Sequence record: PQ511151.1
Length of the DNA stretch: 64,000 nucleotides
DNA from: Escherichia phage NHEP36
Strand: one strand, 5' to 3'
Part shown: one piece after another, positions 43,518 through 44,297 of the stretch
Position numbering within the stretch: the stretch's first letter is position 1
Layout: the number at the start of each line of letters is the position of its first letter
Position numbers and translations under genes: made by a program
Notes under the pieces: generated by a model
What the model saw: the letters and a program-made list of their open reading frames with translations, nothing else
Database searches by the model: none
What the model was told of the DNA's origin: nothing

Positions 43518-44297
43518 TTAAATCCAGGAGCCGTAGATAGTGCCTGTAGCGCCCCATGACGGTGAACTTCCGAATACTGCTCTACCAGGAGCACCACCAC
43601 CCGACCTGGATAAGTGTTTACCCCATCCAGCTCCGCCCCAACCTCCAGCATCACCGCCGTTGCCGCCGCCGAATTGGGAAGTGTAACCGGCTCCGCCAGG
43701 GGCGTCATAACTAGCATTACCACCCGGCCAATTAACGCCACCTCCGCCGATGCCAAATGGTCTACCACCACCGCCACCTGCTGTAGCATTTGGAGCCCAG
43801 CTATTCTGTAATGACACTGCACCGCCACCGCCACCGCCTGATGCAATAACGCCATAGTTCCAAATACGAAGTCTTCCGCCGATATCATTTTGGATTACGT
43901 CACCGCCATTTGTGCCTGGGCTTCCGTTTACAGAACCATTACCACCTCGTCCCCACATATGAACTCCACCATGAATATTCAAAGTAACATATTCATTTGG
44001 CGTATCGCCATACATAAAGAATAATGGAACATCTTTACTATATGATACCAAATTTCCGGTGATATTAAACACTATAGGAGCGCCGCCAGCTTCAAAGCAA
44101 CGGTCACGGAACCATTGCCCGTTAAAGTTATGGTCTGCACCAAGTGTATGAATTATTTCTCTTGAACGGCCCGCGAATTGGGACATCCATGAAGGGTTTC
44201 CTAAACGAAGTTCCCTTGAAGCAGCCGTCATCCATCTTTGACCCGTTTCAGCAACGGCTGAAGTCCCAATCCAACCAGGTATTCCTACTACTGCCAT
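43518..44297 (-). CDS. 38: Long tail fibre tip adhesin gp38 (T2-type, glycine-rich motifs)
   Basis: 259 aa; repeated GGGGG/GGNGG runs separated by short variable segments, as in T2-type gp38; follows gene 37. Confidence 0.8.

Follow-up and report, generated by a model that had tools for sequence, protein, structure and literature searches.

A T2-type gp38 adhesin, very probably the long-tail-fibre tip of a Mosigvirus phage, with OmpF as its predicted receptor

By analysing a stretch of 64,000 nucleotides of Escherichia phage NHEP36 (PQ511151.1; hereafter the window, to which all positions refer), we found that gene 38 very probably encodes the monomeric adhesin at the tip of the distal long tail fibre of a Mosigvirus, that is an RB69/PhAPEC2-like T-even phage, with OmpF as its most likely receptor. 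An earlier note, made from the letters alone, had taken the 259-aa product for a T2-type gp38 adhesin. Pfam, PHROG, sequence matches in the PDB, the match to T2 gp38 and the predicted fold all bear out this assignment, and none of the tests that we ran gave evidence against membership of the gp38 family.

Gene 38 is an intact reading frame of exceptional glycine content

The gene was delimited as follows.

43518..44297, minus strand: gene 38, encoding gp38, the putative long-tail-fibre tip adhesin of 259 aa (ATG-to-TAA open reading frame, stop codon at 43518-43520)

Glycine makes up 65 of the 259 residues (25%) and reaches 35% in residues 111-259. We counted 15 runs of at least two glycines, including GGGGGG at 154-159, GGGGG at 174-178 and GGGG at 184-187. 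Over the 48 open reading frames of the window that reach 150 aa or more, the median glycine content is 5.3% and the second highest value, after gp38, is the 12.4% of gp37. In six frames of the whole 64 kb, only three runs of at least four glycines occur, all inside the gene 38 frame. The gene also differs in base composition, with 50.5% GC vs 37.6% for the window. Thus, the layout of glycine runs pointed out in the earlier note is real and not a chance pattern.

We then counted codon differences with relatives and found 56 synonymous and 6 non-synonymous ones compared to Bas47, and 14 and 3, respectively, compared to NHEP10. Since synonymous differences far outnumber the others, gene 38 as a whole is under purifying selection.

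gp38 belongs to the T2-type adhesins

Two Pfam models match the protein: PF21721 (Gp38_N) matches residues 1-42 (7.2e-21, 74.3 bits for a cut-off of 25), and PF05268 (GP38, phage tail fibre adhesin) matches residues 47-259 (1.7e-82, 277 bits for a cut-off of 25), the latter profile being matched end to end (1-218). PHROG 2056, “tail fiber protein; host specificity”, was found at 1.7e-108. The only real sequence matches in the PDB were gp38 of PP01 (9V85, 4e-73) and chain D of the S16 complex (6F45, 1e-49). T2 gp38, taken from AP018813, has both Pfam domains as well and is 51% identical (E 2e-52).

An AlphaFold2 model built from an alignment of 89 sequences reached a mean pLDDT of 85.8 and a pTM of 0.79; pLDDT fell below 50 at residues 1-14 only, and segment 161-170, in loop B (see below), averaged 65, which is low confidence. 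By searching the PDB with this model using Foldseek, we recovered 9V85_C (E 3e-26, target-normalised TM 0.92, rmsd 1.8 Å over 217 columns), 9V85_A and 6F45_D (E 5e-21), and every match beyond 9V85 and 6F45 had an E of at least 4. According to the model, gp38 has the fold of the S16 and PP01 adhesins (PMC12892980), a beta-helix topped by a polyglycine-II sandwich.

PHROG 1121 also matched, at residues 1-61 only. We rejected this match as a link to T4 gp38, given that direct comparison revealed no similarity to that protein; more likely, it reflects another group of adhesins with a common attachment domain.

Two other readings of the gene were weighed against the adhesin assignment. A composition as extreme as 25% glycine and 50.5% GC could come from a low-complexity artefact in a non-functional or decaying frame, yet the frame is intact, a Shine-Dalgarno sequence is present and the neighbours are canonical. 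Moreover, synonymous changes far exceed non-synonymous ones compared to four relatives, the glycine columns are invariant across the 89 homologues and the predicted fold is confident. We therefore give next to no credence to the idea of a decaying frame, which the conservation pattern rules out. The protein could also be imagined as a T4-type chaperone that only assists gp37 assembly and stays out of the virion, receptor binding being then a property of gp37, and several public records indeed call the orthologue a “long tail fiber assembly chaperone” or “assembly catalyst”. These names were inherited from T4, however, and the best BLASTP alignment with T4 gp38 (NP_049864, 183 aa) covers 12 residues with E = 2.2, so the homology to the T4 chaperone on which the earlier note would have dropped its assignment is absent. 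Neither Pfam gp38-adhesin model matches T4 gp38, while both match T2 gp38 and gp38 of the window. In addition, gp37 of the window ends in a Peptidase_S74 chaperone domain as S16 gp37 does, not in a receptor-binding tip of the T4 type. The BLASTP and Pfam comparisons with T4 gp38 (NC_000866) thus reject a T4-type chaperone at the sequence level, and we regard this identity as extremely improbable. The tip adhesin of the T2 type is the reading retained hereafter.

Five variable loops project from a conserved scaffold

Trojet et al. (2011; PMC3157838) described the C-terminal specificity domain of such adhesins as an alternation of conserved glycine-rich motifs and hypervariable segments. We therefore delimited these segments in gp38 by combining column entropy over the 89 homologues with the loop limits published for PP01 (PMC12892980), carried to gp38 via a HMMER alignment with 9V85. 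This led to the following domains.

44172..44297, minus strand: residues 1-42, N-terminal attachment domain, predicted to bind the gp37 trimer tip (PF21721; function from the S16 complex, PMC7917993, PMC3157838)
43953..44171, minus strand: residues 43-115, conserved beta-helix part of the receptor-binding domain (predicted strands 48-115, pLDDT mostly 93-96)
43599..43952, minus strand: residues 116-233, glycine-rich motifs (polyglycine-II sandwich) and five variable loops (conserved glycine columns, entropy, superposition on PP01 at 1.8 Å)
43521..43598, minus strand: residues 234-259, conserved C-terminal strands closing the beta-helix (predicted strands 241-255; 26/26 residues identical in the OmpF group)

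Within residues 116-233, the loops were placed as follows, each with its PP01 equivalent in gp38 numbering.

43908..43934, minus strand: loop A, residues 122-130 (PP01 equivalent 122-127; entropy peak and PP01 mapping)
43779..43820, minus strand: loop B, residues 160-173 (PP01 equivalent 163-172; entropy peak and PP01 mapping)
43719..43742, minus strand: loop C, residues 186-193 (PP01 equivalent 186-190; entropy peak and PP01 mapping)
43665..43691, minus strand: loop D, residues 203-211 (PP01 equivalent 205-209; entropy peak and PP01 mapping), containing Q208, which corresponds to Q206 of RB51
43599..43637, minus strand: loop E, residues 221-233 (PP01 equivalent 222-230; PP01 mapping and alignment of relatives), with the substitutions D223A and N227K

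The N-terminal segment contains two predicted helices (13-17 and 20-29) for which pLDDT is low, which is what one expects of a stretch that takes its fold on contact with a partner. Residues 43-115 are conserved well beyond the receptor class, with 65-67 of 73 positions identical even to the adhesins of T6, M1 and FL08, which use other receptors. The invariant or near-invariant glycine columns, conserved in at least 90% of the 89 homologues, are G116-G121, G131-132, G154-159, G174-178, G185, G201, G212-215, G218 and G221. Entropy peaks at residues 122-128, 161-173, 185-193, 203-211 and 221-233, and these five segments coincide with PP01 loops A to E. The variable stretches that had been suspected between the glycine motifs are thus confirmed, and the alignment proposed in the earlier note for delimiting them resolves five segments that are equivalent to the PP01 loops.

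gp37 is a partner of the T2/S16 type

The gene upstream of gene 38 codes for the distal fibre subunit.

44328..47579, minus strand: gene 37, distal long-tail-fibre subunit, 1083 aa (PHROG 1699, “long tail fiber protein distal subunit”, E = 0)
44331..44648, minus strand: gp37 residues 978-1083, C-terminal intramolecular chaperone domain with predicted self-cleavage at SDIRCK (S978) (PF13884)

PF13884 (Peptidase_S74) was found on residues 978-1033 (5e-12), and residues 909-1083 match S16 gp37 from the gp37-gp38 complex (6F45_A, 7e-30), SDIRCK at S978 being aligned with SDRRIK of S16. By analogy, gp37 and gp38 form the arrangement of T2 and S16, in which the chaperone domain would be removed and gp38 would dock on the exposed tip, both steps being taken from the literature. 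When compared to Bas47, the C-terminal half of gene 37 (window ~44500-46300) is 83-92% identical whereas the flanking DNA is 97-100% identical, which points to a mosaic patch in gene 37, separate from the variation of gp38.

On this basis, gp37 would trimerise assisted by the chaperone domain at its own C-terminus (978-1083), which would then cut itself off at S978, and the ~40 N-terminal residues of gp38 would dock on the tip exposed in this way. The glycine-rich motifs are expected to pack as polyglycine-II helices into a rigid sandwich atop the short beta-helix, from the far end of which the five loops (~122-130, 160-173, 186-193, 203-211, 221-233) would project and bind the extracellular loops of an outer-membrane porin. 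Binding to the porin would provide the reversible first step of adsorption as well as the choice of the primary receptor. We infer gp37 cleavage, gp38 docking and OmpF binding from published work on S16, PP01, T6, Bas47, RB51, FL33 and fPS-2.

OmpF is the predicted primary receptor

Several phages whose adhesins closely resemble gp38 were shown by experiment to depend on OmpF. Bas47 requires ompF, as shown by complementation in trans, together with waaC and waaG (PMC8594841). FL33 depends on OmpF with a minor effect of TolC (PMC12032242), fPS-2 and fPS-90 use OmpF and the LPS core as receptors in Yersinia (PMC7917993), and RB51 targets OmpF (preprint 10.64898/2026.04.02.716166). Overall identity to gp38 of the window is 97.7% for Bas47, 91.5% for FL33, 92.7% for fPS-2, 90.7% for fPS-90 and 89% for RB51.

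The similarity extends to the loops. Loop B is identical to those of Bas47, fPS-2, FL33 and RB51 at 14/14 positions, loop C is identical to the OmpF group at 8/8, and so is loop D throughout. Loops A and E match the OmpF-dependent adhesins at 7/9 and 11/13 positions, respectively, the private pair D223A and N227K lying in loop E. Taking the receptor-binding domain as a whole, 139 of 144 residues are those of Bas47. In contrast, the adhesins of T6 (Tsx), M1 and FL08 (OmpA) have only 0-2 residues identical to gp38 in each of loops B and D, and at best about half in the remaining loops. It was reported that Q206L in RB51 changes the receptor from OmpF to OmpW (preprint 10.64898/2026.04.02.716166); the aligned residue of gp38, Q208 in the motif GYTSQFGGG, is still a glutamine. 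Published gp38 phylogenies also indicate a common receptor for adhesins that are closely related (PMC12032242). Together, the loop identities, the conserved Q208 and these phylogenies lead us to predict from sequence that OmpF is the primary receptor. Given that single loop substitutions can switch gp38 receptors, we consider this call likely rather than certain.

While aligning these proteins, we noticed that the deposited gp38 of RB68 (KM607004, 976-1749) shows no visible difference from that of RB51 (FJ839693, 976-1749), both having Gln206, whereas the OmpW specificity of RB68 was attributed to Q206L (preprint 10.64898/2026.04.02.716166). Either the GenBank record differs from the stock used in the preprint or position 206 is mis-assigned here.

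The earlier note had called this segment the prime host-range determinant. This stands for the primary porin receptor but not for a sole determinant: Bas47 also needs the LPS inner core, a requirement that the BASEL authors attributed to the short tail fibre (PMC8594841), and with relatives of this kind gp38 is to be seen as one of at least two receptor determinants. Its suggestion of an engineering target is well founded, since published work has redirected receptor use by swapping gp38 or by introducing point mutations (10.64898/2026.04.02.716166; PMC12892980).

Two private substitutions lie in loop E

Six substitutions separate gp38 of Bas47 from that of the window (T54A, T122S, N126S, L183I, D223A and N227K, written from Bas47 to window), T122S and N126S in loop A being also differences from RB51. 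Compared to NHEP10, only A219G, D223A and N227K were found, all within residues 219-227, in or beside loop E. D223A and N227K together remove one negative charge and add one positive (net +2). This pair occurred in none of the close relatives compared, and a lysine at the position equivalent to 227 was seen in MN04 and T2.

We then searched for the loop-E variant GGAGWGKHL as a degenerate DNA pattern. There were 0 matches in IMG/VR and 5 in JGI metagenomes, none of the latter with gp38 homology by tblastn and thus chance matches. A control pattern for the common variant GGDGWGNHL recovered one IMG/VR contig only, so that the absence of GGAGWGKHL from IMG/VR is weak evidence. The exact gp38 protein was likewise absent from a collection of 15 billion sequences.

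Could these changes, along with S122 and S126, have moved the adhesin off OmpF of the K-12 type, towards a porin like OmpW or FadL or another range of OmpF alleles? Loop E governs specificity in PP01 (PMC12892980), the single Q206L of RB51 is enough to turn OmpF into OmpW (10.64898/2026.04.02.716166), and T2, which targets FadL according to the BASEL paper (PMC8594841), is one of the two phages with lysine at the equivalent of 227. The rarity of the pair, which was seen neither in the close relatives compared nor, as part of a gp38, in IMG/VR or JGI metagenomes, and the absence of the exact protein from the large collection would also fit such a shift. Nevertheless, almost the whole receptor-binding domain is shared with Bas47 (the 139/144 residues given above), three loops out of five do not differ from those of four OmpF-dependent phages, and similar adhesins share their receptor in the published phylogenies (PMC12032242). 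That NHEP10, with 99.5% DNA identity in this region, differs only at loop-E sites fits neutral drift equally well. We therefore judge a shifted specificity improbable, and the excess of synonymous codon differences over the gene does not decide how sites 223 and 227 are selected. Likewise, it seems unlikely that D223A and N227K are adaptive host-range mutations which retarget the adhesin to other OmpF alleles or to another porin; if they were, they would form a natural parallel to the switch from OmpF to OmpW by a single residue that was reported for RB51 and RB68. OmpF thus remains our predicted receptor.

Gene 38 lies in the canonical tail-fibre cluster

Around genes 37 and 38, we identified the following features.

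49437-53270, minus strand: gene 34 (map of open reading frames)
48304-49428, minus strand: gene 35 (map of open reading frames)
48271..48278, minus strand: T4-type late promoter motif TATAAATA, upstream of gene 36 (motif scan)
47588-48244, minus strand: gene 36 (map of open reading frames)
44308..44323, minus strand: GGGCC-UUCG-GGCCC hairpin between genes 37 and 38 (centroid fold, -12.3 kcal/mol)
42807-43466, minus strand: holin gene t, directly after gene 38
42534-42806, plus strand: AsiA (synteny with Bas47)
within 41950-42336, plus strand: Arn-like open reading frame (synteny with Bas47)
40040-40672, plus strand: MotA, followed by several small open reading frames (synteny with Bas47)
38529-39854, plus strand: topoisomerase II medium subunit (synteny with Bas47)

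The order 34-35-36-37-38-t, followed by asiA on the opposite strand, is also that of the annotated genomes of Bas47, T2, RB51 and T4. The plus-strand neighbours at 38529-42806 follow the annotated order of Bas47 and were assigned by synteny only.

The motif scan revealed no late promoter motif directly upstream of gene 38. As the nearest upstream one precedes gene 36, genes 36, 37 and 38 are probably transcribed together from the motif at 48271-48278. The hairpin stands directly 5' of the Shine-Dalgarno sequence of gene 38 (GGAGG, 44303-44307), and T4 and T2 likewise have a UUCG-loop hairpin at this intergenic position, with a stem of different sequence. Folded as a 56-nt segment, the region is not significant (z = -1.06), and the notable part is limited to a local stem of 6 bp and the UUCG loop. 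We presume that it resembles the classic intercistronic C(UUCG)G hairpin of T4.

Two further observations concern the 3' side of the gene. Between genes 38 and t (window 43486-43499, minus strand), there are two overlapping copies of the TATAAATA late-promoter motif, the doubling of which arises from a 6-bp tandem duplication (TAAATA); NHEP10, Bas47 and Bas38 have a single copy each. As for holin T, the program-made open reading frame spans 42807-43478 (minus strand; 223 aa, MGGNMAAPK...) while annotated homologues begin with MAAPK. Because the first ATG overlaps the Shine-Dalgarno sequence GGGAGG, the start is probably at 43466, which gives 219 aa.

The fibre-tip module may have moved between genera

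The first 25 kb of the window share 98% identity with TU01 and NHEP10, both Mosigvirus phages; for the 37-38-t region, identity amounts to 99.5% with NHEP10 and 93.6% with AlbertHofmann (Bas47). Within gp38, the N-terminal attachment domain has the same sequence as in Bas47 and Bas38, and matches those of fPS-2 and FL33 at 31-32 of 42 positions. Since this domain differs from fPS-2 and FL33 while the receptor-binding domains are nearly the same, attachment and specificity modules appear to reassort, as described by Trojet et al. (PMC3157838).

By comparing the window with AugustSocin (Bas38, MZ501052), classified as a Tequatrovirus, we found a block of ~6.5 kb (window ~41200-47800) with 85-99% nucleotide identity between flanks of 60-73%. 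Gene 37 and the arn region mark its two ends, with genes 38, t and asiA in between. The contrast between block and flanks suggests that a fibre-tip module has been exchanged between Mosigvirus and Tequatrovirus.

Annotation value and comparison with known systems

This gene is an ordinary member of the gp38 adhesin family, already well described along with its fold, loops and receptor classes. As the closest relatives are annotated and some of them were characterised experimentally, there is little gain for basic biology. What the present analysis adds is the OmpF class, five delimited loops, a gp37 partner of the T2/S16 type and two private substitutions in loop E. For annotation, OmpF can be predicted as the primary receptor of this phage, a requirement for the LPS core would probably come from its short tail fibre as in Bas47, and the five loop segments are now delimited for swaps or mutation. 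Matches were found in 804 phage records, and in GenBank the labels of gp38 orthologues conflict, including “hypothetical protein”, “tail protein and peptidase”, “long tail fiber assembly chaperone” and “distal long tail fiber assembly catalyst”. Those that speak of a chaperone were inherited from T4 gp38, a protein unrelated to gp38 of the window.

Indeed, T4 gp38 has in common with it the gene name and the map position between 37 and t, but is a protein of 183 aa that has neither glycine motifs nor a Pfam gp38-adhesin match, is not a virion component and shows no detectable similarity. T2, the type member, shares both Pfam domains, the gene position and the order of the glycine motifs at 51-53% identity. 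In the beta-helix part (residues 43-115), however, T2 is identical to gp38 of the window at only 28 of 73 positions vs 66-67 of 73 for T6 and M1. This indicates that outside the loops the protein is closer to the lineage of T6, M1 and RB51 than to T2.

In the Salmonella phage S16 (6F45), both partners are homologous, gp38 at 1e-49 (~45% identity) and the C-terminus of gp37 at 7e-30, which supports capping of the gp37 trimer by one gp38; S16 differs in targeting OmpC of Salmonella and belongs to another phage genus. For PP01, the crystal structure of gp38 (9V85) has the beta-helix, polyglycine-II sandwich and five distal loops that are predicted here, at ~63% identity. All five loops nevertheless differ in sequence and some in length, and the porin bound by PP01 is OmpC of E. 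coli O157, not the OmpF predicted for the present adhesin.

NHEP10 (PQ511148) is the nearest public record, with a gp38 that is 98.8% identical and labelled “tail fiber protein”, and a DNA identity of 99.5% over window 42500-48000. The most informative relative is Bas47 (AlbertHofmann, Mosigvirus phapec2, from the BASEL collection), the gp38 of which also has 259 aa and is annotated as “adhesin tip for distal long tail fiber Gp38”. Its gene 38 is 91.7% identical in DNA, with mostly synonymous differences, and its protein 97.7% identical, the N-terminal domain and loops B, C and D being the same as in the window. The two phages also have the Mosigvirus backbone and the gene order 36-37-38-t-asiA in common.
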